Shown here: positions 16,533-44,462 of the stretch, piece by piece
Numbering within the stretch: position 1 is the first letter of the stretch
Layout of the letters: every line of letters starts with the position of its first letter
Assembly (NCBI RefSeq): GCF_905203285.1
Contig: NZ_CAJKVK010000001.1
Span: 10,802 to 74,801 of the forward strand
DNA length: 64,000 nt
Direction of reading: 5' to 3'
Source of the DNA: an uncultured Succinatimonas sp.
GTDB lineage: Bacteria > Pseudomonadota > Gammaproteobacteria > Enterobacterales > Succinivibrionaceae
The notes under the pieces: model-generated
Databases searched by the model: none
Told to the model about the DNA's origin: nothing
Seen by the model: the letters and a program-made list of their open reading frames with translations, nothing else
Translations under genes and position numbers: made by a program

Positions 16533-16799
16533 TTATTCCTCCAAAGCTCTTAACTCTTGCATTGTTTTTGTGACTTTTTCTTCATTGTTTAAAGACCAAA
16601 TGCTGTGATCCAAAGCTTCCCGATTGGCTTTAGAGTAAAAAGAATCAGCAGTAGGAGTAAAAGGCAACTTACGAAGATTAACCATTTGTGTTAAACACAT
16701 GCGGATCACGGATGTTAAATCAAGGCCCATTGCCTTTGCTGCTTCTTGTGCTTGTTTTTTTAACGTTTCATCAATGCGAACTTGTAATAATGCTGACAT
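16533..16799 (-). CDS. RelB/DinJ-family type II antitoxin
   Basis: 88 aa. VRIDETLKKQAQEAAKAMGLDLTSVIRMCLTQMV...LPF parallels E. coli DinJ (VRARIDEDLKNQAADVLAGMGLTISDLVRITLTKV...LPF). Confidence 0.85.
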   Translation of the reverse strand: MSALLQVRIDETLKKQAQEAAKAMGLDLTSVIRMCLTQMVNLRKLPFTPTADSFYSKANREALDHSIWSLNNEEKVTKTMQELRALEE

Positions 16800-25255: not shown

Positions 25256-26710
25256 TTAAGCATATGAAAAATTAGCCTCAATCGTAGTCTTTATCGGGGC
25301 TTTAGCCAAAAATTCAATCACAGCTTCAAAGCTTTTAAATTCTTCTTTCCGCGTGTTTGAAGTTTGTGATTTTCGATATTGATTGGCAATAGTTCGGATC
25401 ATCTTAAAATTCTGCTTAAGCGCACGGATGTTGAGTTTAAATAAATTTACGCAATATTCGTCCCACCACGGGTCACAATTGACGAATACCTTGTACATGG
25501 AGATGTAATACCTGTGTTTTTCATCAAGATAAAGGTAAATCAGGTATTTTATGATTGCCGCAATAAGACTTGCCTGAGCAACGGTATAGACAATGGTGAG
25601 ATAGGAAGTATTGACGCCTCTTAAATTAACTCTGCTTTTAAGGCATTTAAACAGGAGCTCTATCGACCAACGCAGCTTTTGGATTAATACTGCATATTGT
25701 GCCGGAAAGCATTGCCGCGGAATATCGGTGATTAGATAAGATACGGTACCTTTGTTGTTGCTCCATACCCTCAGAACTCTTACTTGTAAGCCGTTATTTA
25801 AGATTACGTCCATATCAAGAATGTCATGCGGACGATAGGCCCTTAGCAGCGGCTCTTTTAAATCCTTGTCAATAAAATTAGTTAAGCTTTTTCCTTTAAG
25901 GAAGCAGGCGGTAATTTTCCCCGTCATATTACATTTACCGAGCAGCATAAAATAAGAGCCGGCTTTATGAATAAGTTCAAGTAAAGCATAGCTGACATAG
26001 CCGGCATCCATGATTTTAAGTACCGGATGTTGTTTGTCTGCGTTTACGACCTCTCTTTCATCGGCGGTGCCGGAAGTAAAAGTTACGGCTTTAAACATAC
26101 CCGTGACTAAAGAAAATACCGTCTGCATACCGATTTGAGCGTTCTTAGGCTCCTTGCTTACGGCATTACCTTGCTCGTCATAGCTGTCAGGCAGTTCATC
26201 GCCTTTAGCGGCGGTACGGCAGCCGGGAAAAATATCTTCAAGCTTATCGTTTACATGCCAATATGAGCCGTCAACCGCTTCGATATCTTCAACGGCAAGA
26301 CCGTGCTCTCTTAAAATATTTAATAAAAGTCTCCCGTGCTTGGGTTGGGCAAATTTAGCACTGAGAAAATCCGTATAGCGCTTAAGCAACATACCCATCA
26401 ATTGTGTAACCTCCGGCTTTTTGATTTTATTGTGAAACGGTTTGCTCTCCATACTCTGCCCTGACAGAGCGGCATAACGGGCACCGATTGAAGCTATGGT
26501 GAATTTAGCGCCTGAGCCTGTCTGCACAATGATTGACGTTACAAAACTGACGGGATTAAAACGGCATTTTCTCCGGTTAAGACCGACTTTTCTTGCCATA
26601 CGTCCGATGAAAGATGCCGAAACGGTAGAGGAAAAATACTCTTTTAAAGAACGTTCGTTAATTTGGGACTTGCAGTTACGGTCTTTTAGGATAGATAATA
26701 AACGCGGCAT
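25256..26710 (-). mobile_element. IS4-superfamily DDE transposase gene (484 aa). The IS ends are not resolved
   Basis: C-terminal motif RWSIELLFKCLK, with IS4-type R-x3-E-x6-K spacing. DDE-like acidic residues are present. Confidence 0.75.
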
Positions 26711-27746: not shown

Positions 27747-30700
27747 TCAGTAACCGATGCTTACAGCACTGTTTCCGGCAATTTCTCTTAATGAATCCAA
27801 CAGATCGTCACTTGGGTCGTAACGATTGACGTTATTGGTAAACCGCAACAGAGTATTTCCGAGCATCAAGTTAAAAGAACAGCCTTGCCCTTCATTATCG
27901 GGATTTTCTCTTATTGAATAGCGCTGTGCAGTATTCATGCCGTTATTTTGTACGGCGATGACATTGTTTAGAAGTGCAGAGCTTAATTCATTAAAGTTTT
28001 TGGAAAGCTGCTCCTCGCTTAAGCGCAGAGTCAGGTTTTTAGCGTTTTTACGTCTGATGCTTTCAAGAGTTTTGAGTTCACGAACCCTAAGACGCGTAAG
28101 ATTATCCTCGGTAAGTGACAACATTCCGCTTACGATTAAAACCAATGGTGACGGAATGGTTTTTGACGGATCGGTTTCCTGCATTACTTTTTGTTTTTGC
28201 AGTTTTGCTCTTTCATACAAGATTGCTCCGTATTGTTCTGCTACGGATCCGTAAAGTGAAAATTCAATCTGAGAGGTACCGTCATCCAAGATCAGAATAT
28301 AGAATTTGCTGCCGTCGTTTTTAGACGTACGTTCGGTGCTTGAGATAACGACTCCGTAAAAGGTAACGGGATTGGGGCGCTGGGCTGTGCCTGGGCGCAG
28401 CGTGCTTATCGTGCTGCGGTAGTTGCGGGTTAGCTCATCAATATAAATATTTATAGGATGCCCTGACAGATAAAGCCCCAACACGTTCTTTTCAAGGTAG
28501 AGACGGTATTTTTCCGACCAAGGACGGCATGCAACAAAAGTTGGTGCTGTGGTTTCACTTATTGCGGCAAACAGATCAAGCTGCCCGGATGCTGCATCCG
28601 TGCTTTCCTGTACGGCATATTTCATAGCTGTCGGGATGGAAGCCATCATTTGTGCGCGGGATGGACCTAATTTATCAAGGGCCCCGCTTGCAACTAAAGC
28701 TTCAAAGGTTCTGCGGTTTAAATGATTAGGTCCGATGCGCTTTATAAAATCAAAGAAGTCTTTAAACGGCTCTTTGGCTCTTTCTTTAACGATGTCTTCT
28801 ACAACATCTTCGCCGATGCCTTTGACTGCACCGATACCGTAAATAATTTCTTCTGCGTCATTTACCGTAAAGTTAAATAACCCTTCGGTTACATCAGGCG
28901 GATTAACTTTAATTTTGAGGCGATTGCATTCTGCGATATATGACACCAGTTTTTCGGTTCTCTGGCGGTCAGCCGTCATCATGGCGGCCAGGAATTCGGC
29001 GGGATAATGGGTTTTAAGCCATAAGGTCCACCATGCAACCAGGGCATAAGCAGCCGAGTGGGACTTGTTAAAACCGTATTCGGCAAACTTTTCCACCTGA
29101 TCGAAGATTTTCATTGCGATATCGGTATCTTTGCCTTTTTTAGCGGCACCTTCTTTAAAGACGCTGCGCTGCCCTGCCATTTCGGCTGGGGTTTTCTTAC
29201 CCATGGCACGGCGCAGAATGTCAGCGCCGCCCAGGGAGTAACCCGCAAGAACCTGGGCAATCTGCATTACCTGCTCTTGGTAAACGATAACTCCGTAAGT
29301 TGAGTCAAGAATCGGTTTTAGGTCAAGATCCTGAAAGTCAGGGGACGGATAGGCAACTTCTTCTTTACCGTGTTTACGCTGTACAAAGTGATCGACCATG
29401 CCGCTTTTGATAGGACCGGGTCGATAGAGAGCTACAAGAGCGATTAAGTCGTCAAAACGGTCAGGCTGCATTTGGCCTATAAGCTTACGCATACCGGCAG
29501 ATTCAAGCTGGAAGACAGCCGTGGTTTCACATTGTTGCAGCACGGCAAAGGATTCAGGATCTTCATACGGTACGGCATGGATATTGACAGGCGGTTCATG
29601 ATGCTTTGCCTTTCTGGCATTAATCATGGTAAGGGCATCGTCAATGATGGTAAGCGTGGTAAGACCTAAAAAGTCGAATTTTACTAAGCCTGCGTGTTCA
29701 ACGTCCTTTTTGTCAAATTGGGTAATTGAGTTGCCGTCAGAATCAAGCATCAGAGGCGAGAATTCCGCGGTTCGGGTAGGGGAAATGACTACGCCCGCCG
29801 CATGCTTGCCGATATTGCGGATAACGCCTTCAAGGCGCAGCGCGATATGGATAAGCTCAACGCGCTGCCTGTCATCATCTTGTAATGCTTTTTGGTAAAG
29901 ATTTACAAAATCCGGAGCTAAAGGATCGCATGGTTTGCCGTCTTTGCCGATGCCCATGGCCGCTTTAAAGGTAAGTCCGGGCTGCGTTGGCAGCTGTTTT
30001 GCGACAAAGTCAACGGCACCGTAGCCCATGCCCAGGGCACGGCCGGCATCTTTAATGGCGGCTTTTGGAGCCATGGTACCGAAAGTGGCGATTTGGGATA
30101 CTGCGTTATTACCGTAGCGCTTTTTAACGTGTTCAAGCGTTTTTTCACGGTTTCTCTGGCAGAAGTCGACGTCAAAGTCCGGCATTGAAACACGCTCTGG
30201 GTTTAAGAATCGCTCAAAGAGTAAGTCAAAGCGCAAAGGATCAAAATCGGTGATTTTAAGCGAGTAGGCAACAAGCGAACCGCCGCCTGAGCCGCGGCCG
30301 GGGCCTACCGGTACGCCGTGCTCTTTGGACCATTGGATAAATTCCATAACGATGAGGAAGTATCCGGGGAAGTCCATGTTGATGATAACGTCAAGCTCGG
30401 TATTTAATCTGTCTACATAGGTCTGACGTTTTTCGTTTCTCTCTTTTTCGTCCGGGTAAAGGAATTCAAGTCGCTCTTCAAGCCCTTCTGCCGCTTTTTT
30501 TCTTAAATAGTCGGCGGGGGATAAATCACCTGTCGGGTAACGGGGTAGTCGCGGGTGGTCAAGTTCAATTTCGATATTGCAGCGCTCGGCAATGTTTCTC
30601 GTGTTCTGTAAAGCTTCAGGAATATCGGCAAATAGTGCTTCCATTTGCTCGGGAGTTTTTAAATACTGTTCTTTTGAGTATTTGCGCGCCATTTCTTTAT

Positions 30701-31415
30701 TGCCGCGCTGACAGCCGGCCTGAATCGAGACGCGGACGTCATGAATTTGATAGTCGGAAAAGCCGTCTTTTCCGACGTTGTCTTCACCGAAAAGAAAAAC
30801 CGTGTCGTTGGTCGCAACAGGGGCAATATTGTATTCAACGCATAAATTTAAGGCAAAGTTTTCAAATTCGCTTTCACCGATACGGTTGGTGCGGGTGATT
30901 TCAAAACAGAAGCGATCGTTAAAATTTTCCAAATAGAATTTAAGTCTGGATCTTATTGCCTTGGAGTCCTTTCTTTGCGCCATAGCGGCGATATCGCCGC
31001 GAAATCCGTCAAGAATAATGATGCCTTCGCTGTATTTTTTTAAGTCGGCAAGTGAGGTTTTAGCGTTAAAGGCTCCGGCATCTGAGCGCAGCCATGCTTC
31101 GGATAAAATGTCATAAAGGTTTTGCTGACCGACGCGATCCATGGCAAGGAGAGTCAATTTAAAGGATGTAGCCTTTTCTCCGGGCTTAACCTCTTCTTCA
31201 ACTTCTATATCAGCTCCCATGATGGGCTTGATGCCGGCACTTTTACAGGCGGTATAAAATTTGATGAAACCGCAGATGTTGGAAATATCGGTGATTGCAA
31301 GAGCCGGGATCTTAAGCGCGGCGGCACGTTTTCCGATGGCGCCGACGCTTTCAAGACCGTCCATAATCGAGTAGTCGGAATGTACGTGAAGCGGAATATA
31401 AGTAATGTTGGGCAT
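27747..31415 (-). CDS. dnaE: DNA polymerase III alpha subunit
   Basis: 1222 aa. N-terminal PHP domain (LHVHSDYSIMDGL), polymerase core, OB-fold C-terminus. Confidence 0.95.
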   Translation of the reverse strand: MPNITYIPLHVHSDYSIMDGLESVGAIGKRAAALKIPALAITDISNICGFIKFYTACKSAGIKPIMGADIEVEEEVKPGEKATSFKLTLLAMDRVGQQNLYDILSEAWLRSDAGAFNAKTSLADLKKYSEGIIILDGFRGDIAAMAQRKDSKAIRSRLKFYLENFNDRFCFEITRTNRIGESEFENFALNLCVEYNIAPVATNDTVFLFGEDNVGKDGFSDYQIHDVRVSIQAGCQRGNKEMARKYSKEQYLKTPEQMEALFADIPEALQNTRNIAERCNIEIELDHPRLPRYPTGDLSPADYLRKKAAEGLEERLEFLYPDEKERNEKRQTYVDRLNTELDVIINMDFPGYFLIVMEFIQWSKEHGVPVGPGRGSGGGSLVAYSLKITDFDPLRFDLLFERFLNPERVSMPDFDVDFCQRNREKTLEHVKKRYGNNAVSQIATFGTMAPKAAIKDAGRALGMGYGAVDFVAKQLPTQPGLTFKAAMGIGKDGKPCDPLAPDFVNLYQKALQDDDRQRVELIHIALRLEGVIRNIGKHAAGVVISPTRTAEFSPLMLDSDGNSITQFDKKDVEHAGLVKFDFLGLTTLTIIDDALTMINARKAKHHEPPVNIHAVPYEDPESFAVLQQCETTAVFQLESAGMRKLIGQMQPDRFDDLIALVALYRPGPIKSGMVDHFVQRKHGKEEVAYPSPDFQDLDLKPILDSTYGVIVYQEQVMQIAQVLAGYSLGGADILRRAMGKKTPAEMAGQRSVFKEGAAKKGKDTDIAMKIFDQVEKFAEYGFNKSHSAAYALVAWWTLWLKTHYPAEFLAAMMTADRQRTEKLVSYIAECNRLKIKVNPPDVTEGLFNFTVNDAEEIIYGIGAVKGIGEDVVEDIVKERAKEPFKDFFDFIKRIGPNHLNRRTFEALVASGALDKLGPSRAQMMASIPTAMKYAVQESTDAASGQLDLFAAISETTAPTFVACRPWSEKYRLYLEKNVLGLYLSGHPINIYIDELTRNYRSTISTLRPGTAQRPNPVTFYGVVISSTERTSKNDGSKFYILILDDGTSQIEFSLYGSVAEQYGAILYERAKLQKQKVMQETDPSKTIPSPLVLIVSGMLSLTEDNLTRLRVRELKTLESIRRKNAKNLTLRLSEEQLSKNFNELSSALLNNVIAVQNNGMNTAQRYSIRENPDNEGQGCSFNLMLGNTLLRFTNNVNRYDPSDDLLDSLREIAGNSAVSIGY

Positions 31416-36011: not shown

Positions 36012-37499
36012 TTGAAAATGGCAAATTACTTTAATACTTTAAATTTAAGACAGAAACTTGCCCAGCTTGGATGCTGTGAATTAATGGATAGAAGCGAATT
36101 TGCAGACGGCTGCAATTTCCTTAAAGGCAAAAAGTGCGTAATTATCGGTTGCGGAGCTCAGGGCTTGAATCAGGGCCTTAACATGCGCGATTCAGGTCTT
36201 GATGTCAGCTATGCTCTTCGTCCTGCCGCTATTGCAGAAAAACGTGCTTCTTTTAAGCGTGCTACCGAAAACGGCTTTAAGGTCGGTACTTATGAAGAAT
36301 TAATTCCGACTGCCGATTTGGTCATCAATTTGACTCCTGACAAGCAGCATTCCAATGTTGTTGAGTCCGTTATGCCTTTGATGAAGCCTGGTGCAGCTTT
36401 AGGTTATTCCCACGGCTTTAATATCGTTGAAGTCGGTCAGCAGATCCGTAAAGACATTACTGTTGTCATGATGGCTCCTAAGGCCCCCGGTACTGAGGTT
36501 CGTGAAGAGTATCGCCGCGGTTTCGGCGTCCCGACTTTGATTGCCGTTCATCCTGAAAACGATCCTAACGGTGAAGGCTGGGCAATTGCTAAGGCATGGG
36601 CCAGTGCAACCGGCGGTGATCGTGCAGGCGTTTTGCGCTCTTCCTTCGTTGCTGAAGTTAAGTCGGACCTCATGGGCGAGCAAACCATTTTGTGCGGTGT
36701 TTTGCAGGCAGCCTCAATTCTCTGCTTTGATCGCATGGTCGAGCTCGGTATGGACAAAGCTTATGCATGCAAGTTGATCCAATACGGTTGGGAAACCGTT
36801 TGTGAGGCATTAAAGCAGGGCGGCATCACCAACATGATGGATCGTTTGTCAAATCCTGCCAAGATCCGCGCATGCGAGCTTGCCGATGAGCTTAAGTGCA
36901 TCTTAAAAGATCTGTACTTAAAGCATATGGATGACATTGAAAGCGGTGAGTTCTCCCGTGTCTTGATGGAAGACTGGGCCAACGGTGACGTCAAGCTTTT
37001 GACCTGGCGTGAGAATTTTGCAAAATGCGGTTTTGAAAATGCTCCGCAGTGTGACACCAAGATCAGTGAGCAGGAATACTTTGACAAGTGCATTCTGTTG
37101 GTTGCCTTCGTTAAGGCCGGTATTGAGCTGTCCTTTGAAACCATGACTCATTCAGGTATTTACCCTGAGTCTGCTTACTATGAGTCATTGCATGAGTTGC
37201 CTTTGATTGCCAACTTGATTGCTCGTCGTCGTCTTTATGAGATGAATGTGGTTATTTCCGATACCGCCGAGTACGGTGATTACCTCTTTGCCAACGCTGC
37301 AATTCCTCTCTTAAAGGACTTTATGGCTAAGATTGATCTTGATGTTATGGGCAAAGGTCTTGATGGCGACAATGCTGTTGATAACATTGAGCTTATCCGT
37401 ATTAACGATAAGATCAGAAATCATCCGATTGAGGTCGTTGGACGCAAGCTTCGTGCTTACATGTCAGACATGAAGGAAATTGCCGTAGGCAACAATTAA
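36012..37499 (+). CDS. ilvC: ketol-acid reductoisomerase, class II
   Basis: 495 aa. Rossmann motif GCGAQG and enterobacterial-type long form. Confidence 0.95.
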
Positions 37500-37520
37500 T
37501 CTTTTAAAGATTAAATAAAG

Positions 37521-37560
37521 AAAAACCTCCTAAGCTTCTTCATGCAAGGGAGGTTTTTTA
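37521..37560. terminator. bidirectional rho-independent terminator after ilvC
   Basis: Stem AAACCTCC/GGAGGTTT followed by TTTTTT. T-runs are present on both strands. Confidence 0.75.
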
Positions 37561-37575
37561 TAATTAGTCAGTGTT

Positions 37576-38187
37576 TTATGAAAATTGGTTTTTTATATAT
37601 TCTTCGAATTCTTTTTGGTTGAAGGTATAAACATCATTAAAGCAAAAATTTTTAAATGAAGACAACTTAAAGCATATAAGGTGTTCACTTTTTGTTGTTT
37701 TGGCAATGGATTTAGCTAAGTTAATGAAACTATTTGAGTATTCAACATTTGCCGGATCTGATAATCTTTTTTGTATTAATATAGGGTCTTTTGAGTTTAT
37801 ATTTGCCTTATCGTTGTATACTAATATATAGTCAATATATATGCGCGAAGCGGAAATATTTGCATTATCTTTTTGCAATATATCAAAAAGGATCAATAGG
37901 CTGTCATAGATCTTCTTTTTTAATTCTGCTTGTACTATCTTATTAATTTGTCCATTCTTAAATTCAATAAATAACCACTTTTTATTTTTGTTATTAAAAA
38001 CAAGGCAATCATTTGAAGAGGGCGGTTCTTTTAAATAAAGATTTTTTATATATTGTTCCTTGACTTTATCAAAATTTATAACTTCAATACAAGAATTGGT
38101 CATATATTCATTTTTGTTTTTATCGTGAGATGCATTTTTTAAACTGGTTAAGTTGCTTTTAAAAATATCTAAATTTCTATTAATCAT
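37576..38187 (-). CDS. hypothetical 203-aa protein, partner of the upstream ATPase (AT-rich island)
   Basis: ORF sits 7 nt downstream of the ATPase gene on the same strand. Lys/Asn/Ile-rich. I could not recognise any catalytic or HTH motif (no HNH, TOPRIM E/DxD or PD-(D/E)xK). Confidence 0.5.
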   Translation of the reverse strand: MINRNLDIFKSNLTSLKNASHDKNKNEYMTNSCIEVINFDKVKEQYIKNLYLKEPPSSNDCLVFNNKNKKWLFIEFKNGQINKIVQAELKKKIYDSLLILFDILQKDNANISASRIYIDYILVYNDKANINSKDPILIQKRLSDPANVEYSNSFINLAKSIAKTTKSEHLICFKLSSFKNFCFNDVYTFNQKEFEEYIKNQFS

Positions 38188-38194
38188 TTCGTTT

Positions 38195-39427
38195 CTAAAT
38201 ATCTTCTAGTTGTTGTAATGGAACAAAAAGTTTTTTATAAATTTGTTCTATGTCTGTTGAAACATCTACAATAGTTGCCATTTCTTCGGAAATACATTCT
38301 GAAAGATAATATTTACATGTGTCGGCAATTTCATATTTTCCTGCAAAAACTTGAATTGCCCTTAAAAAATAAGGACTATGTGTATTTAGTAACACATGCA
38401 AATTAAATTCTTTTTGTAAAAGGACAATTAATTCAGCCAGAAGCAATTGCCATTGCGGATGCAAATGTGTTTCCGGCTCGTCCAGTATTATTACACCATT
38501 ATAGTTTATAGCATTGTTTAATAATAAGGTCTTTAAAATAACAAAGGTCTTAAGACCGGTTGAAAGATTTCGAATATCTAATAATTTACCGTTTTCTTGG
38601 AATTTAAAGATATTATTTTTATCCCGAACAATTCTTCCTTTACAGGTTTTTTCAATTAAAGTAAAAATATTTTCTAATTTATTGCTATTAATTAATTCAT
38701 CTAATAAGTTGTTATTTTTTGATTCTAATTTCTTAAGTAAGTGTATTTTGTGTTTAAAACTATCAAAGTAAGGAACAGGTAAAGAATCAATAATTGAGAA
38801 GTCATCAATATAAATAGCTTCGTTTATGATATCAAAATTTATTGTTTTTTGTATGGATTTAACAATATTGTTATTGAATTCAAGTTTGATGCTATTATCT
38901 TTTAACTGTAATTTAATATAATTAGATTCGCTGTTAAATATATTACTAACTTGATTGTTAAACTCATAATTAATATTTTTTGTTAACACTAATTTAGTTA
39001 ATTCGTCATCAGTAATATTTAATGTTTCAAGAATTATATTGATAATATCTTTAAATGTTGAGTCTGATATTTCCTTATCTGTATAAATATCAAGATCACA
39101 TAAATTTATAATATCTTTTTGTAATGTATTATAATTATATGGATTATTTTTATTGTTTGAAATTAATGTTGAAGCAATATTTTCCAATGCTTCTTGTGTA
39201 AAGTTAGGCCTTTTCTGAATAATTACAAAAGACAATCTATTTATTATACTGTTTATTCTCTCGCTCTTTACTTTTTGTTCTAAAGAAAAGAAAGAGTTAA
39301 AAGTGGAAAACAGCGCTCTACTTACAGTGCTTTTACCTGTGTTGTTTTCACCTGCAATAACTGTAATTCCGTTTATTTCAATTTTAGCTTGCTTAAGTTT
39401 TCCGATATTTTTTAATGATAATTGCAT
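38195..39427 (-). CDS. ABC/SMC-like ATPase (AAA_21/AAA_15 type) of the kind found in OLD, PARIS AriA, Septu PtuA, Gabija GajA and RloA modules
   Basis: Walker A GENNTGKST, signature-like LSTGLK, Walker B plus D-loop ILDEPETHLHP, and an H-loop in NTHSPYF. 410 aa. Strongly AT-rich coding sequence. Confidence 0.8.
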   Translation of the reverse strand: MQLSLKNIGKLKQAKIEINGITVIAGENNTGKSTVSRALFSTFNSFFSLEQKVKSERINSIINRLSFVIIQKRPNFTQEALENIASTLISNNKNNPYNYNTLQKDIINLCDLDIYTDKEISDSTFKDIINIILETLNITDDELTKLVLTKNINYEFNNQVSNIFNSESNYIKLQLKDNSIKLEFNNNIVKSIQKTINFDIINEAIYIDDFSIIDSLPVPYFDSFKHKIHLLKKLESKNNNLLDELINSNKLENIFTLIEKTCKGRIVRDKNNIFKFQENGKLLDIRNLSTGLKTFVILKTLLLNNAINYNGVIILDEPETHLHPQWQLLLAELIVLLQKEFNLHVLLNTHSPYFLRAIQVFAGKYEIADTCKYYLSECISEEMATIVDVSTDIEQIYKKLFVPLQQLEDI

Positions 39428-39475
39428 ATTATTATCTCAATTAATTTTAAGCGTATGTTCGCTTAATTATTTACA

Positions 39476-41491
39476 TTATAGCAGTCCCTTTAACATATTA
39501 AGTCCTCTATCAAGCATCATATCGCTTTCTTCTTTATCAATTTTTTTAGGAGCCCCTAAAAATTCACGCGCAAGATCTTCCTGCGGCATTTCGGCGATAA
39601 ACCGGCTGGGCTCATTTGCAGTTGCTTCACGTCCTCTTTTTCTTTCGCGGCAATAGGTAATGGTAAGCTCTACTTTTGCGCGAGTTACTCCTACATAAGC
39701 AAGGCGTCTTTCTTCTTCGATGCCGTTTGGCAGATCAAGGCTGTTGCGGTGCGGGAGGATCCCCTCCTCCAAGCCGATTAGAAAGACGTACGGAAATTCA
39801 AGTCCCTTGGCCGAATGTAATGTCATAAGCTGGACAGCGTCGTTTTCAGATCCGTCCTCATTTTTATCCATCATTTCGCGAAGACCGAGCTTGTCTACGG
39901 CTTGCGAGAATAATAAAGGAGGCTCTCCGCGGCGGCCTTTTACCAAATCTTCTATCCAGCTCATTAAAGTACGGACATTTTTTATTTTGACGTCAACGCT
40001 TTTATCGTTGGCTCCCGTTCCTCTTAGATAGCCTTCGTAACCGATAATATCAATAAGCTTTTGAGCAAGCTGCAAATCCTGATGAGTCTTAAGAAGATTT
40101 TTTAAGCTGTTATACAGCTCTAAAAAAGATGTAATAGATTTGTTTTGACTGGAGGAAAGCTTGGCGTAAAGCTGTTTTGAACGTAAAGCAGTATATAGAT
40201 TTACCGAATACTCCGAGGCAACTGATGCTATGGTGCTTAAAGTTTCAGCACCGATGCCGCGGCGCGGAATATTGATAATTCTAAGTAGGGCAGCATTATC
40301 GCCTTCATTTGAAAGCAAGCGGCACCAGGCGAGGATATCCTTTACTTCCATCATGTCAAAAAAGCTGCTGCCTCCGGTTATAACGCAAGGGATACGGGCA
40401 GAGCGGAAAGCTTTTTCAATGCTGCGTGACTGAGTGTTGCTGCGATAAAGTACGGCATAATCTCGCCACGGTTTACGGTATAAATAGCGGTGCTTTAAGA
40501 TTTCAGAAGCGACTCTTTCGCTTTCAGCGTTTTCATCCTGTACTTCAATGACGGCAATTTTTTTGCCTTCATCCAAGTTTGAAAATAATGATTTTTTAAA
40601 TAAGTGCTCATTGTTTTCAATGATTTTGTTGGCGCAATGCAGAATTCTTCCTGAAGAACGGTAATTTTGCTCAAGCTTAATAACTTTCAGATCAGGAAAA
40701 TCTTGCGCCAATATGTTGATATTTTCCGGACGGGCACCACGCCAGGAATAAATAGACTGATCGTCATCGCCTACTACAGTAAAACGGCGTCTTTTGCTTA
40801 CCAACACTTTTAGCAGTTCATATTGAGTAGTATTTGTATCCTGATACTCATCGACAAGAACATAGCGAAAATAATTTTCCCATTTGGAGGCTGTTTCCCG
40901 GTCGCTTTTTAGAAGTCTTGTGGTTAAAAAAATCAAATCATCAAAGTCAGCGGCGTTACAGGCTTTAAGGTAAGCTTGATATTCTTCGTAAAGAGAAGAC
41001 AGCGTTGTCTTCGGTACTATGTCTTGAGGGGTTTTTAATTCACCTTTCCATAAAGAAATTTGCTGCAGTGCATCAAAAATGCAGTCTCGCTCGGATTTAC
41101 CGTCAAGCATTAAAGGGTAATTTTCTCGAATAAGATCGCGCACGATTTTAAATTGATCAGATTCGTCAAATAAGGTGAAATTGCGTTTAAGCCCGACTTT
41201 ATTATGTTCTACGCGCAAAATGCCGAGGCCTAAAGAATGGAAAGTTGAAATCCAGATCTCTTTTGCAGATTCCTGACCTAATTCCTGAGCTACTCGTTCT
41301 CGCATTTCCGCCGCGGCCTTATTGGTAAAAGTGACAGCGCAGACGGTTTTTGCAGGAAGTTTATGTCCGGTTATCAGGTTAACAATTTTGGCGGTAATTA
41401 CTCGGGTTTTTCCGGATCCGGCTCCGGCTAAAACCAGACATGGCCCGTCAATATAAGTGACGGCCTGCTGTTGGGCATCGTTAAGTCGCAT
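39476..41491 (-). CDS. rep: ATP-dependent DNA helicase Rep
   Basis: MRLNDAQQQAVTYIDGPCLVLAGAGSGKTRVIT... is near-collinear with E. coli Rep. 671 aa of the UvrD/Rep SF1 family. Confidence 0.92.
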   Translation of the reverse strand: MRLNDAQQQAVTYIDGPCLVLAGAGSGKTRVITAKIVNLITGHKLPAKTVCAVTFTNKAAAEMRERVAQELGQESAKEIWISTFHSLGLGILRVEHNKVGLKRNFTLFDESDQFKIVRDLIRENYPLMLDGKSERDCIFDALQQISLWKGELKTPQDIVPKTTLSSLYEEYQAYLKACNAADFDDLIFLTTRLLKSDRETASKWENYFRYVLVDEYQDTNTTQYELLKVLVSKRRRFTVVGDDDQSIYSWRGARPENINILAQDFPDLKVIKLEQNYRSSGRILHCANKIIENNEHLFKKSLFSNLDEGKKIAVIEVQDENAESERVASEILKHRYLYRKPWRDYAVLYRSNTQSRSIEKAFRSARIPCVITGGSSFFDMMEVKDILAWCRLLSNEGDNAALLRIINIPRRGIGAETLSTIASVASEYSVNLYTALRSKQLYAKLSSSQNKSITSFLELYNSLKNLLKTHQDLQLAQKLIDIIGYEGYLRGTGANDKSVDVKIKNVRTLMSWIEDLVKGRRGEPPLLFSQAVDKLGLREMMDKNEDGSENDAVQLMTLHSAKGLEFPYVFLIGLEEGILPHRNSLDLPNGIEEERRLAYVGVTRAKVELTITYCRERKRGREATANEPSRFIAEMPQEDLAREFLGAPKKIDKEESDMMLDRGLNMLKGLL

Positions 41492-41492
41492 A

Positions 41493-43427
41493 TTAGTAAA
41501 TGGAGAATTTCTGATCTCGTCCTAAAAGATCATAGGTAAAGAAACTAAGATCGTTTTTATCATTCATCGAAACTTCAATGTTTTGAAGGGCATAGGCTTC
41601 AGCCGTAAGAGTTTCGTTTTCATTGCACAGGCTTATAAACGGCGTTTTTAATTCAGCGCTTAATGAAGAAAGGTTCATTAAGCAATTTCTAAGTTCTGAT
41701 GAAGTTAACCCGGTTAAATCTATTATCGGACAGAAATTCTTTTCTCCCTGAAGATATAAAGCTCCGACCGCTTCTTCAATAGCTTGCGGCAGATCGTCCG
41801 TGTTTTGGATTTCAAGAAGTTTAGCTCGATTCCATGGAGCAAAGACAGCTCCGTCATCATAATGCTCACGGCGTTTTAACAAGGAGCAAACCATATTCCA
41901 TTGTTCTTTGGTACCGACGTAAATAATGCGCATGTCGGTTTGGACTTTGGCACTGATTATTTCAGCGACAAGCCGCTTTAAGATCACGCTGCGTCCTGAC
42001 AAGGAGTAAAGGCATGGGGATAATTGCAGGGAATACAAAGCAACTGCGGATAATACCGGAGAGTACGTTTTAGGCTGCAGCGGAACGGTTTGCAAAGAAA
42101 AAGATAAAAGACGTTCAAGATTATTAAGTCTTGTAAGCAGCGTTTCTCTATCTTTGCACAAGGCCTCATTCGGATCTTTATAGGGAAAAGCAAGATTGAT
42201 GCGCTTAAACGGGATATGCATATATTCAAGGCCTTGAGCCAATGAAGCTGCCGCCTCAGCGCCGGCCTTGTCGTCATCAAGAGCTATATAAAACATTCTT
42301 TCATAGACAGGATGTTCTTGAATGTAGTCAAGGAGCTTACGGATATTTGAGACTCCGCCTAAGCTTACGGCACTATAGCCCAATGTTTCGATACTTAAAG
42401 CGTCAAATTCGCCTTCGGTGATAAAGATCATGCCGGGTTTATCTAAAGCATTTTGATTAAAAATTCCGGCAGATCCTTGTTTCCTGATGCGATCTTTACT
42501 GCGTGAATCGGTATTTCGCGCCATATAGGCAGTTTCGCTGTAAGGAATAATTACTGCCTGCCAGACGATTTTATCTCCGGTTCGCGGATCGATTCCGGCG
42601 GTGAAATCATTATCAAAACCAAGACGGAATTTTTCTGCTACCGTTTCTGAAATTCCTCTTAATCTGAAATAGTCGGTTTGTAAACGGCGGCTTGCGCATT
42701 GCTTTAAATATTCTGTGTAATTGTGTCTTACTTCAGTTCTGAAATCCGAAAAGTGGCTGTCGCTTTGTCCAAAAGTGTTTTTGTTTCCTGATCCGATAGC
42801 GTTAAAGTTGTCTCTTACGCCAAAAACAGCGCCTTGAGTAGGGTGAAAGGAGCTGCGGGCTGAATTGTTAAGATCTTGAGAATCGTCATTTAGCGGATCA
42901 AAATTATGGAATAAAGGATCATTTTCGTCTCGTTTGTGGATAGAAAAATCATTAAAAGGAACAGTATTTGCCTTATCGTTTTCATCACGAAAATTACTGT
43001 CGGCAATACCGAAGCTTACGGGACCGGGAGTTTTTCCTGAGGTAAAATCAAGATTGTCATCTGCTTCGTCATTATCATGAAGTCTGAAGTCGTTTTGTTT
43101 TTCTTGTCCGCTAAAATCGTCGTTAGCTTCAATAAATTCGTTATCTCCGGTGCTTAAAAACAATTCACAGGCTTTATCAAATTGATCTTTAAAATCAGAA
43201 AGACCGAAGTCCAGACCGATAATTTCGAAAATATCGTAGGTTGCATTACAGCTAAAGCAATGAACGGTTTGATTCTTCGGGTTATAGCTCATGCTCGGAT
43301 GGATATCTTGATGATTAGGATTCAAGCAGCGAAAAGGAGCATTAATATTAATGCCTTTGTTGCGCAGATACTCAGGAAGTTGTGTTTTAAGATATTCTTT
43401 GGTTTTGGCAAAATCGTTGTATAACAT
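41493..43427 (-). CDS. primase-like protein with an N-terminal CHC2 zinc finger, a low-complexity D/N/F-rich linker, a DnaG-type TOPRIM domain and an uncharacterised C-terminal domain
   Basis: CHC2 zinc finger in CLNPNHQDIHPSMSYNPKNQTVHCFSCN. YLKQCASRRLQTDYFRLRGISETVAEKFRLGFD resembles the DnaG linker. TOPRIM motifs in IFITEGEFDALS and YIALDDDKAGAEAA. Confidence 0.7.
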   Translation of the reverse strand: MLYNDFAKTKEYLKTQLPEYLRNKGININAPFRCLNPNHQDIHPSMSYNPKNQTVHCFSCNATYDIFEIIGLDFGLSDFKDQFDKACELFLSTGDNEFIEANDDFSGQEKQNDFRLHDNDEADDNLDFTSGKTPGPVSFGIADSNFRDENDKANTVPFNDFSIHKRDENDPLFHNFDPLNDDSQDLNNSARSSFHPTQGAVFGVRDNFNAIGSGNKNTFGQSDSHFSDFRTEVRHNYTEYLKQCASRRLQTDYFRLRGISETVAEKFRLGFDNDFTAGIDPRTGDKIVWQAVIIPYSETAYMARNTDSRSKDRIRKQGSAGIFNQNALDKPGMIFITEGEFDALSIETLGYSAVSLGGVSNIRKLLDYIQEHPVYERMFYIALDDDKAGAEAAASLAQGLEYMHIPFKRINLAFPYKDPNEALCKDRETLLTRLNNLERLLSFSLQTVPLQPKTYSPVLSAVALYSLQLSPCLYSLSGRSVILKRLVAEIISAKVQTDMRIIYVGTKEQWNMVCSLLKRREHYDDGAVFAPWNRAKLLEIQNTDDLPQAIEEAVGALYLQGEKNFCPIIDLTGLTSSELRNCLMNLSSLSAELKTPFISLCNENETLTAEAYALQNIEVSMNDKNDLSFFTYDLLGRDQKFSIY

Positions 43428-43429
43428 TT

Positions 43430-44206
43430 TTAAGCCTGTTTAACTATTTTATTTAAAAGCCAAGAAGCCATCAAAAGGCCTGCTGAAGCGGTTACTGCCA
43501 TTGCGGCTCCGAATTTGGGCAAGTCAGAAGCTTCCTTATCTGAATAAATGGGAGCTTCAGATGAATACGTACAGAAGACATCCATTTTTTCTCCGTTTTT
43601 AGGAAAATTATAGTGGCGTCTTAATTCGGTTCTAAGCCTTGAAATTAATGCGTCTCCATGGGCATTTGCGATATCGTCGATTTTAAGTTTGCCAGGATCG
43701 ACTCGTCCGCCTGCACCTCCTGAGACAATAAAAGTTTTATTCTTTTTATAAAGATAGTCAACTAAAAAAGCTTTAGCTTGCAGATCGTCAATGGCATCTG
43801 CAATAAATTGCGGACAATCTTTTAGGATTTCAGGAATATTTTCCTTTGTAAGCGTTGTTTCAACCGTATGGATTTTTATTTCGGGATTAATAGTAATAAG
43901 TCTGTCTTTTAATGCTCTGACTTTATATTGATTTAAAGTTAAATCCGTAGTGTGCAATTGTCGGTTGGTGTTGCCAAGCTCAATAGTATCAGGATCTATT
44001 AAAGTTAAAGTTCCAACTCCTGAGCGGCAAAGCGCTTCAGTAAGCCAAGAACCGACGCCGCCGCAGCCAATGACCATGACGTGGGCAGTTTGTAATTTTT
44101 TAAAACCTTCTTCCCCGTAAAGAGCGCGGATCCCGCGAAAACGTACAGATAATTCGTGCAAAATGAATATCCTTGTAGTGCTATTGACTTGTGAGCATTT
44201 TAACAA
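43430..44206 (-). CDS. tcdA: tRNA threonylcarbamoyladenosine dehydratase (E1-like, ThiF/MoeB fold)
   Basis: 258 aa. Rossmann motif VMVIGCGGVGSW. Matches TcdA/CsdL length and fold. Confidence 0.8.
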   Translation of the reverse strand: MLKCSQVNSTTRIFILHELSVRFRGIRALYGEEGFKKLQTAHVMVIGCGGVGSWLTEALCRSGVGTLTLIDPDTIELGNTNRQLHTTDLTLNQYKVRALKDRLITINPEIKIHTVETTLTKENIPEILKDCPQFIADAIDDLQAKAFLVDYLYKKNKTFIVSGGAGGRVDPGKLKIDDIANAHGDALISRLRTELRRHYNFPKNGEKMDVFCTYSSEAPIYSDKEASDLPKFGAAMAVTASAGLLMASWLLNKIVKQA

Positions 44207-44284: not shown

Positions 44285-44361
44285 GGTCCCGTAGCTCAGT
44301 TGGATAGAGTATCGGTTTCCGAAGCCGAGGGTCATGAGTTCGAATCTCATCGGGATCGCCA
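44285..44361 (+). tRNA. tRNA-Arg (anticodon CCG)
   Basis: Manual cloverleaf fold. Acceptor stem GGTCCCG/CGGGATC, anticodon loop TTCCGAA, T-arm GGTTCGAATCC-like (GAGTTCGAATCTC), 3' CCA encoded. Confidence 0.85.
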
Positions 44362-44377
44362 GTCAAGCTTCTCTAAT

Positions 44378-44462
44378 GCGAAAGTGGCGAAATTGGTAGA
44401 CGCGCTAGCTTCAGGTGCTAGTACCGCAAGGCGTGAGGGTTCGAGTCCCTCCTTTCGCACCA
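44378..44462 (+). tRNA. tRNA-Leu (anticodon CAG)
   Basis: Acceptor stem GCGAAAG/CTTTCGC, anticodon loop TTCAGGT, long variable arm, T-arm GGTTCGAGTCC, 3' CCA encoded. Confidence 0.85.

Follow-up and report, generated by a model that had tools for sequence, protein, structure and literature searches.

In a 64,000-nucleotide (nt) stretch of the genome of an uncultured Succinatimonas sp. (contig NZ_CAJKVK010000001.1, positions 10,802 to 74,801; this whole 64-kb stretch is hereafter the window), a cassette of foreign DNA lies between rep and the ilvC terminator. It holds an intact OLD/SMC-like ATP-binding cassette (ABC) ATPase gene followed by the gene of a small partner, predicted to be a very divergent nuclease of the PD-(D/E)xK superfamily. 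Our favoured reading, to which we give a probability of about 0.62, is that of a horizontally acquired two-gene anti-phage module in which the ABC ATPase acts as sensor and the PD-(D/E)xK nuclease as effector. An earlier inspection of the letters alone, called here the sequence-only reading, had put forward an uncharacterised defence module at this place; as a plausible candidate it is supported by the acquired nature of the segment, by the ATPase-plus-partner architecture and by the lack of a named system to which it could be assigned. The features concerned are the following.

36018 to 37499, plus strand: ilvC, ketol-acid reductoisomerase (NCBIfam NF003557, E 2.8e-276, above cut-off); native flank, outside the module.
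37520 to 37559, both strands: bidirectional intrinsic terminator, serving ilvC (plus strand) and the rep-ATPase-partner unit (minus strand); downstream edge of the insertion.
37576 to 38187, minus strand: partner, divergent PD-(D/E)xK nuclease of 203 amino acids (aa); predicted effector.
38188 to 38194, minus strand: 7-nt spacer sequence from the ATPase stop codon to the partner start codon.
38195 to 39427, minus strand: ABC ATPase of the OLD/AAA_15-AAA_21 clade, 410 aa; predicted sensor or regulator.
39428 to 39475, minus strand: 48-nt spacer from the rep stop codon to the ATPase start codon; upstream edge of the insertion.
39476 to 41491, minus strand: rep, Rep-type UvrD-family helicase of 671 aa; native flank, outside the module.

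The foreign nature of the cassette is first apparent from its composition. In 300-nt windows, the fraction of guanine plus cytosine (GC) is 0.42-0.53 in ilvC, 0.19-0.31 from about 37500 to 39450 and 0.47-0.49 inside rep, and the lowest-GC 1-kb bin of the whole window is 38001-39000 (24.9%). Exactly two credible open reading frames (ORFs) are found in 37561-39475, both on the minus strand. They have 25.0% and 25.1% GC against 43.1 +/- 2.6% for the other 46 window ORFs of at least 150 aa, taken as the per-gene baseline (z = -6.9); the z-scores of their GC at third codon positions (GC3) are -3.3 and -4.5, and the codon-usage divergence of the ATPase and partner ORFs is the largest and second largest, in one order or the other, of the 64-kb window. 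The native composition is recovered in rep (42.7% GC), whose stop codon occupies 39476-39478. Thus the fall in GC after the ilvC terminator and its return at rep, as described in the sequence-only reading, hold for windowed GC, per-gene GC and codon usage alike, and the limits given there, 37561-39475, are correct to within a few bases. The same is true of the content of the segment, described as an ATPase and a small partner only, in view of the two credible ORFs, the ATPase profiles and the structures presented below.

The two flanking genes had also been named correctly: ilvC scores 917 bits against a curated NCBIfam cut-off of 713, the nearby ilvY scores 307 (cut-off 246), and the top model of the helicase is TIGR01074 Rep, with 846 bits (2.1e-254), slightly below its cut-off of 951. 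The statement that ilvC and rep are near neighbours in E. coli stands in part. They are 1.2 kb apart in E. coli K-12 (NC_000913.3, 3957970-3962698), but ppiC and the pseudogene yifN fill the interval and the relative orientation of rep is reversed, so that this neighbourhood is only loosely conserved across Gammaproteobacteria. Succinatimonas hippei, in which rep and ilvC are directly adjacent, is a better comparison.

S. hippei YIT 12066 was the single related genome retrieved when one genome per species was scanned with the Rep protein. Its Rep is 97% identical and 11.8 kb of flanking DNA are 87.6% identical, which makes it a sister species. Between rep and ilvC it has a 264-bp AT-rich spacer devoid of ORFs, then a bidirectional terminator hairpin, then ilvC, and no remnant of the ATPase or partner gene was found in this spacer. 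In the alignment, homology extends about 45 nt past the rep stop codon, is lost, and is regained at the terminator; about 1.87 kb has therefore replaced about 190 bp of spacer. As only a gene-free spacer is present in S. hippei, we consider the module to be an insertion. The direction of the event, insertion and not deletion, follows from the composition, from this one empty-site genome and from the affinity of both proteins with those of Firmicutes, their closest homologues outside Succinatimonas being 44-50% identical and belonging mostly to gut Firmicutes (Clostridia, Lachnospiraceae). The horizontal acquisition proposed from the letters is thus supported, and the relative in which the genes could have been found with native composition does not have them. 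As for the route, no meaningful direct or inverted repeat or target-site duplication was seen at the borders, where only chance matches of AT-rich sequence occur, and neither integrase, transposase nor tRNA is present at the insertion site. Homologous recombination through the flanks is our guess.

The first gene had been labelled an ABC/SMC-like ATPase, and Pfam, the motifs and Foldseek all agree with this label. Pfam AAA_15 (2.8e-17) and AAA_21 (2.6e-16) are both matched above their gathering cut-offs. The protein displays a Walker A (G26-x-N-x-T-G-K32-S-T), a Q-loop (Q159), a signature (S289-T-G291-L-K293), a Walker B (D316-E317, followed by P318-E319-x-H321-L-H323-P) and an H-loop (H350), and every motif residue is invariant across 45 homologues. 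Its AlphaFold2 model (predicted local distance difference test, pLDDT, 86.6; predicted template modelling score, pTM, 0.86) matches PtuA (of Septu and retron I-A), Rad50, SMC heads and OLD in Foldseek, with a probability of 1.00 and E from 5e-9 to 1e-6; sequence matches to solved structures are confined to the last 80 or so residues of the core. There is no TOPRIM domain in the ATPase, which ends at 410 aa, and coiled coil is likewise absent. PADLOC ranks PD-T4-4_A first (3.7e-25, 87 bits), followed by AriA (3.8e-22), HEC-02A (2.6e-21), NsnB, PtuA and GajA (4.7e-13). These matches of the ATPase are partial and the partner has none, so that the PADLOC models allow no named system to be assigned to the segment, in keeping with its description as uncharacterised.

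The partner has no match among the Pfam, NCBIfam, PHROGs and PADLOC models, and the profile of its family has none among the sequences of the PDB. Its AlphaFold model is nevertheless confident (pLDDT 91) and adopts the canonical alpha-beta-beta-beta-alpha-beta core of restriction endonucleases. The candidate active site is composed of D40, D60 and E75-F-K77, plus K92: across 52 sequences D40, D60, E75 and K92 are invariant and K77 is nearly so (at least 90%), and in the model D60 directly precedes strand 61-65 while E75-F76-K77 ends strand 70-77. Foldseek gives no significant match of this model in the PDB; the weak matches are also PD-(D/E)xK enzymes. The closest structural matches of the partner are the DNA endonucleases N.BspD6I, FokI, BstEII, PspGI, NgoMIV and NucS. 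We therefore predict the partner to be a very divergent nuclease of the PD-(D/E)xK superfamily. The earlier statement that it could be matched to no known effector family holds at the level of the family; its kind, on the other hand, can be recognised as that of a PD-(D/E)xK nuclease. The family is sizeable, with 1,735 clusters at 50% identity, and has neither a Pfam nor a PADLOC model, some of its members weakly matching HEC-02B and SduA_C. A 198-aa metagenomic protein (P0002) with a hit to Pfam PF20224 is 99% identical to the partner over half of its length only; its contig measures 775 bp, and the protein is likely to be a chimera of assembly.

The two genes form one unit in inheritance, translation and divergence. 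The partner profile drew 80 metagenomic and nine viral loci, of which 76 extended 1.3 kb or more upstream and were counted: an ATPase homologue on the same strand is immediately upstream of the partner in 73, and a 74th has a frameshifted ATPase. Where the genes were nearly full length (65 loci), an overlap of 4-20 nt between the partner start and the 3′ end of the ATPase gene is present in 52, most commonly of 8 nt (33 loci), unlike the window pair with its gap of 7 nt. Pairwise distances of ATPase and partner are strongly correlated (mirror-tree, r = 0.91), a value reached by none of 999 Mantel permutations. This correlation and the overlap fit translational coupling and a stoichiometric complex, while shared descent through tight linkage would also give r = 0.91.

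The pair is found mainly in gut Firmicutes. When the 83 immediate neighbours in 22 non-redundant loci were typed, PADLOC recognised mad2/mad3, a type I restriction endonuclease, AbiLi/AbiLii, MzaA, AbiTi, SoFic and several PDC candidates, and Pfam recognised glycosyltransferases and epimerases (variable surface loci), phage terminases, GH25 lysins and serine recombinases. In a complete genome of Clostridia (L010; OW818645.1, 8865-16588) the pair is directly upstream of a type I CRISPR-Cas operon that looks complete (cas6, large subunit, cas7, cas5-like, cas3, cas4, cas1). In another locus (L007) it adjoins a helix-turn-helix gene, an N6_N4 methyltransferase gene and a 212-aa ORF, as in a small restriction-modification system, and in a third (L011) it stands amid ordinary genes. 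Nine viral contigs of IMG/VR also carry it. In three of them (L102, 6662-11137; L103, 6662-11372; L106, 6596-10328) it is immediately upstream of the genes for the small and large terminase subunits, a recurrent position that suggests a cargo hotspot in phages of Firmicutes; in one further contig it adjoins a serine recombinase, and in a fifth a Fic protein. The carriers thus comprise Firmicutes, a gammaproteobacterium and phages, among which the unit moves. A patchy occurrence, carriage by phages and defence neighbours that are frequent without being universal are typical of defence cargo.

Carriage by phages and proximity to recombinases could equally be displayed by a toxin-antitoxin (TA)-like cassette ensuring addiction or stabilisation of mobile elements, with the nuclease as toxin, the ATPase as antitoxin and no primary role in defence. 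The Pfam label of AAA_21, ‘putative AbiEii toxin, Type IV TA system’, goes in the same direction, although it is a historical name. WonAB, an abortive-infection system of the V. cholerae WASA-1 prophage (Adams et al. 2025), is informative on this point: WonB is toxic when over-produced, but only alongside an active ATPase, which excludes the simple antitoxin model (PMC12137116). Moreover, the window cassette is chromosomal, with no mobile element to stabilise and no flanking repeats, integrase or transposase. We regard this explanation as improbable.

Transcription of the cassette in this genome probably depends on the genes that precede it. A very tight operon on the minus strand, the upstream part of which occupies 41493-44077, with gaps of 1-2 nt, has rep as its last native gene; the order is a TcdA/ThiF-like adenylyltransferase gene (43430-44077), a gene whose 644-aa product combines a CHC2 zinc finger with a Toprim_2 domain, and rep. 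Against the DnaG model (cut-off 283.6) this primase-like protein, which has a long middle region rich in D, N and F, scores only 72 bits. S. hippei keeps all three genes, the TcdA-like gene, the 644-aa Toprim gene and rep. Within the 48-nt spacer between rep and the ATPase, a consensus scan found no sigma-70-like site, and there is a weak hairpin (39447-39466, -7 kcal/mol) without U-tract. The next strong terminator past rep is the bidirectional hairpin after the partner gene (37520-37559), of -19.2 kcal/mol on the plus strand and -15.1 on the minus strand (z -5.1 and -3.3), with U-tracts on both strands and a homologous hairpin in S. hippei. The cassette therefore probably rides on transcription of the tcdA-like/Toprim/rep operon, by read-through from rep, which would probably give it a low constitutive expression.

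This position behind rep, at a distance of 48 nt, on the strand of rep and with probable co-transcription, could also be taken as the sign of a pair accessory to repair or replication, in which a Rad50/SbcC-like ATPase and a nuclease would work with Rep, or of a Gabija-like system making use of rep. Rad50 and SMC heads are indeed among the structural matches of the ATPase, and Gabija, whose GajA is partially matched, combines an ABC-ATPase nuclease with a UvrD-type helicase. However, rep is native in composition and its product is 97% identical in S. hippei, where neither ATPase nor nuclease exists; a UvrD-family helicase is beside the pair in none of the other loci with typed neighbours; the ATPase has neither the TOPRIM domain that defines GajA nor a coiled coil; and foreign composition together with a sporadic, phage-borne distribution would ill suit a housekeeping repair function. 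Of all the explanations considered, a partnership with Rep is the one we find hardest to believe.

An identical partner protein occurs on 67 contigs across many samples. All six listed Succinatimonas contigs with this partner have it at the same locus, five of them with a full-length ATPase. On one metagenome contig (ERR11477751_10092; L003, 4762-5990) the ATPase gene is otherwise identical but frameshifted at codon 354, with an intact partner, which reflects either a sequencing error or the existence of strains whose sensor has been naturally inactivated. Such a variant, the failure to detect a promoter proper to the cassette and its very unadapted composition would all be expected of inert cargo, that is, a recently acquired remnant, unexpressed or in decay, that serves no function at present in its host. 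This is difficult to reconcile with two full-length ORFs that keep every invariant catalytic residue, with the recurrence of the identical partner at the same locus and with a location directly behind rep that supplies transcription, and it seems to us very improbable.

By analogy with WonAB, PARIS, HEC-02 and PD-T4-4, the favoured anti-phage module could work as follows. The ATPase would dimerise and, through its C-terminal extension, keep the nuclease inactive in a complex; a cue derived from the phage would shift the ATP-dependent state of the ATPase and so license the nuclease, which would then cut nucleic acid and stop the infection. The nature of this nucleic acid is the least certain step. 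We suppose that RNA of the translation apparatus (tRNA or rRNA) would be the most likely target, leading to abortive infection and not to destruction of phage DNA. WonAB stops translation while the chromosome stays intact (PMC12137116), and the purified complex of PD-T4-4, a validated anti-phage system of E. coli ECOR58 made of a P-loop/ABC ATPase and a PD-(D/E)xK nuclease (Vassallo et al. 2022; PMC9519451), left all 11 DNA substrates uncut, and its authors propose that the target is RNA or tRNA, or that a cue was missing (10.1101/2025.07.10.664194); both observations favour RNA. So does the control of tRNA nucleases by ATPases of the same clade, in PARIS and, according to a 2026 preprint, in OLD.

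The main rival is a module of the same kind with direct, non-abortive DNA targeting, where the ATPase would recognise foreign DNA or load on it and the nuclease would degrade phage DNA, as in restriction-like systems of a nuclease and an NTPase (Hachiman, AbpAB or Shedu). It finds support in the DNA endonucleases that are structurally nearest to the partner, in the DNA-binding Rad50 and SMC heads among the structural neighbours of the ATPase, and in the degradation of DNA in vitro by several complexes of PD-(D/E)xK nuclease and NTPase (10.1101/2025.07.10.664194). Set against the arguments for RNA given above, we judge it rather unlikely. Within the anti-phage reading, it is also possible, if doubtful, that the partner is a functionally distinct effector and not one more look-alike of WonB or NERD, with a new substrate (for example one particular site in tRNA or rRNA, or nucleic acid that is modified or structured) or a new trigger; the latter could be read by inserts specific to this ATPase family.

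Several points weigh against a sensor-and-effector module of anti-phage defence. The association with defence islands is real without being overwhelming, many neighbours being housekeeping or surface-polysaccharide genes, and no other defence gene is near the module within the window. The partner is assigned to no named effector family at family-level significance. No promoter was identified, a consensus scan giving 14 promoter-like sites against 13.5 +/- 3.1 in shuffled sequences. The frameshifted ATPase of one Succinatimonas metagenome suggests that the module is dispensable in some strains, and the steps of RNA cleavage and abortive infection are drawn entirely by analogy. With these points taken into account, a function of the pair in phage defence is still plausible, and we regard it as fairly probable.

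Other features of the window lie apart from the cassette. Adjacent genes for tRNA-Arg(CCG) and tRNA-Leu(CAG) (44285-44462, plus strand) are upstream of the tcdA-like/Toprim/rep operon, away from the insertion site. At 16533-16799 (minus strand), within the kilobase that ranks second in the window for AT content (33.9% GC), a gene encodes an 88-aa protein with a RelB/DinJ-type antitoxin domain (Pfam RelB, 3.2e-9); no recognisable toxin ORF adjoins it, and it may be an orphan antitoxin or the remnant of a TA pair. A 484-aa DDE transposase (Pfam DDE_Tnp_1, 1.4e-9) encoded at 25256-26710 (minus strand), in a stretch of lower GC (36-40%, 25-28 kb) just downstream of a large polymerase-like gene (27747-31415), probably belongs to an insertion sequence.

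If the anti-phage function is confirmed, a sizeable effector family, hitherto unannotated and found mostly in gut bacteria and their prophages, would join the growing class of defences in which an ABC ATPase controls a nuclease, while the general picture of how such systems work would stay unchanged. Were the partner truly a distinct effector, this would be a new named defence system, common in Firmicutes of the human and animal gut and in their phages. The module would escape current annotation tools, which recognise the ATPase alone and call no system. Being compact (1.85 kb) and having clear catalytic residues, it is easily testable. The locus also provides a clean case of the transfer of a defence cassette from Firmicutes to a gammaproteobacterium, placed without visible mobility gene in the 3′ untranslated region of a housekeeping operon, and it bears on the way small defence ‘islets’ spread and are expressed.

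PARIS, Septu, Gabija and OLD share with the window pair an ABC ATPase of the same clade, acting as infection sensor in control of a nuclease. The effectors of PARIS, Gabija and OLD (AriB, GajA and OLD) are TOPRIM proteins and PtuB of Septu is an HNH protein, neither being of the PD-(D/E)xK type. An assignment to PARIS was rejected as the partner has no TOPRIM or DUF4435 match and displays a restriction-endonuclease fold instead; Septu, as an HNH domain is absent from the partner and from the rest of the interval; and Gabija, as the ATPase is devoid of TOPRIM and the adjacent helicase is the native rep, which has no module beside it in S. hippei.

The combination of an ABC ATPase and a PD-(D/E)xK nuclease is, on the other hand, an already validated class of defence, represented by HEC-02, PD-T4-4 and WonAB, and ‘OLD-ABC + novel REase’ was reportedly first noted in the survey of ABC ATPases by Krishnan et al. 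in 2020. In the case of PD-T4-4, PD-T4-4_A is the top PADLOC match of the window ATPase, in two stretches that cover about half of the profile (residues 140-358 of the ATPase, positions 164-373 of 460), while the PD-T4-4_B models are matched neither by the partner (E <= 1) nor by any of the 52 family members (E <= 0.1).

The resemblance with WonAB is that of an OLD-type ABC ATPase with a small stand-alone variant PD-(D/E)xK nuclease, WonAB being prophage-carried. In that system the ATPase motifs and the nuclease lysine are essential, mutants of either being dead, and the predicted complex forms via the C-terminal extensions of WonA (PMC12137116). Among the known systems WonAB offers the best mechanistic model, that of abortive infection with arrest of translation by a nuclease dependent on an active ATPase. 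Comparisons were made with WonA and WonB homologues from the supplement of that paper. The WonA-type and window ATPases share the ‘(D/E)EPExHLxP ... THSPY’ motifs, and in BLASTP the Bacteroides ovatus homologue of WonA aligns only over the Walker A region (E 4e-5) and over the signature/Walker B/H-loop region (31% identity, E 2e-6). On the nuclease side, D42, D53 and E67-x-K69, invariant in the WonB family, are in register with D40, D60 and E75-x-K77 of the partner. The alignment of 15 sequences of the WonB/‘Novel REase’ family gives against the partner family an hhalign probability of 27-34% over 45-47 columns, with a score of 30.8 compared with 10.7 +/- 3.3 (maximum 18.2) for 60 column-shuffled decoys, but hmmsearch reaches only 10-15 bits, and WonB has about 140 aa where the partner has 203, with extra N- and C-terminal elements. 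Gene order varies in the WonAB family, whereas 74 of the 76 loci of the window family have the ATPase directly upstream. The tables of WonAB homologues (the whole of Table 4 and part of Table 5) contained no signature peptide of the partner family, a weak negative.

HEC-02 of Dickeya dianthicola (Payne et al.), discovered embedded in Hma systems of Proteobacteria, associates the ABC ATPase HEC-02A with the NERD-like PD-(D/E)xK protein HEC-02B, both genes being needed (10.1101/2024.01.29.577857). It resembles the window pair in being an operon of two genes, that of the ATPase preceding that of a small PD-(D/E)xK nuclease, the lengths being 342 against 410 aa for the ATPase and 169 against 203 aa for the nuclease. 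HEC-02A and the ATPase family align in hhalign with a probability of 96.6% (E 6e-10) over 134 columns of the C-terminal half, its extension included; the PADLOC match covers only residues 244-368, and the N-terminal half is unmatched, so that Insert 1 and Insert 2 differ. The HEC-02B models are the sole PADLOC effector models matched by more than one member of the partner family (3, 2 and 2 of 52, with E from 1.3e-4 to 7e-3); the window partner itself has no match to them, and the single Dickeya HEC-02B sequence gives against the partner profile a non-significant probability of 0.3%, with the D...ExK cores in register. The two also differ in their hosts, HEC-02 being found in Proteobacteria and the window family mostly in gut Firmicutes and their phages. 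By the profiles and PADLOC models tried, the effector thus appears to lie outside every named family. The novelty here is that of an unannotated effector and an ATPase variant inside a known class, not that of a new kind of system: the module belongs to the class of ABC ATPases associated with PD-(D/E)xK nucleases, with HEC-02 as its closest relative on the ATPase side.

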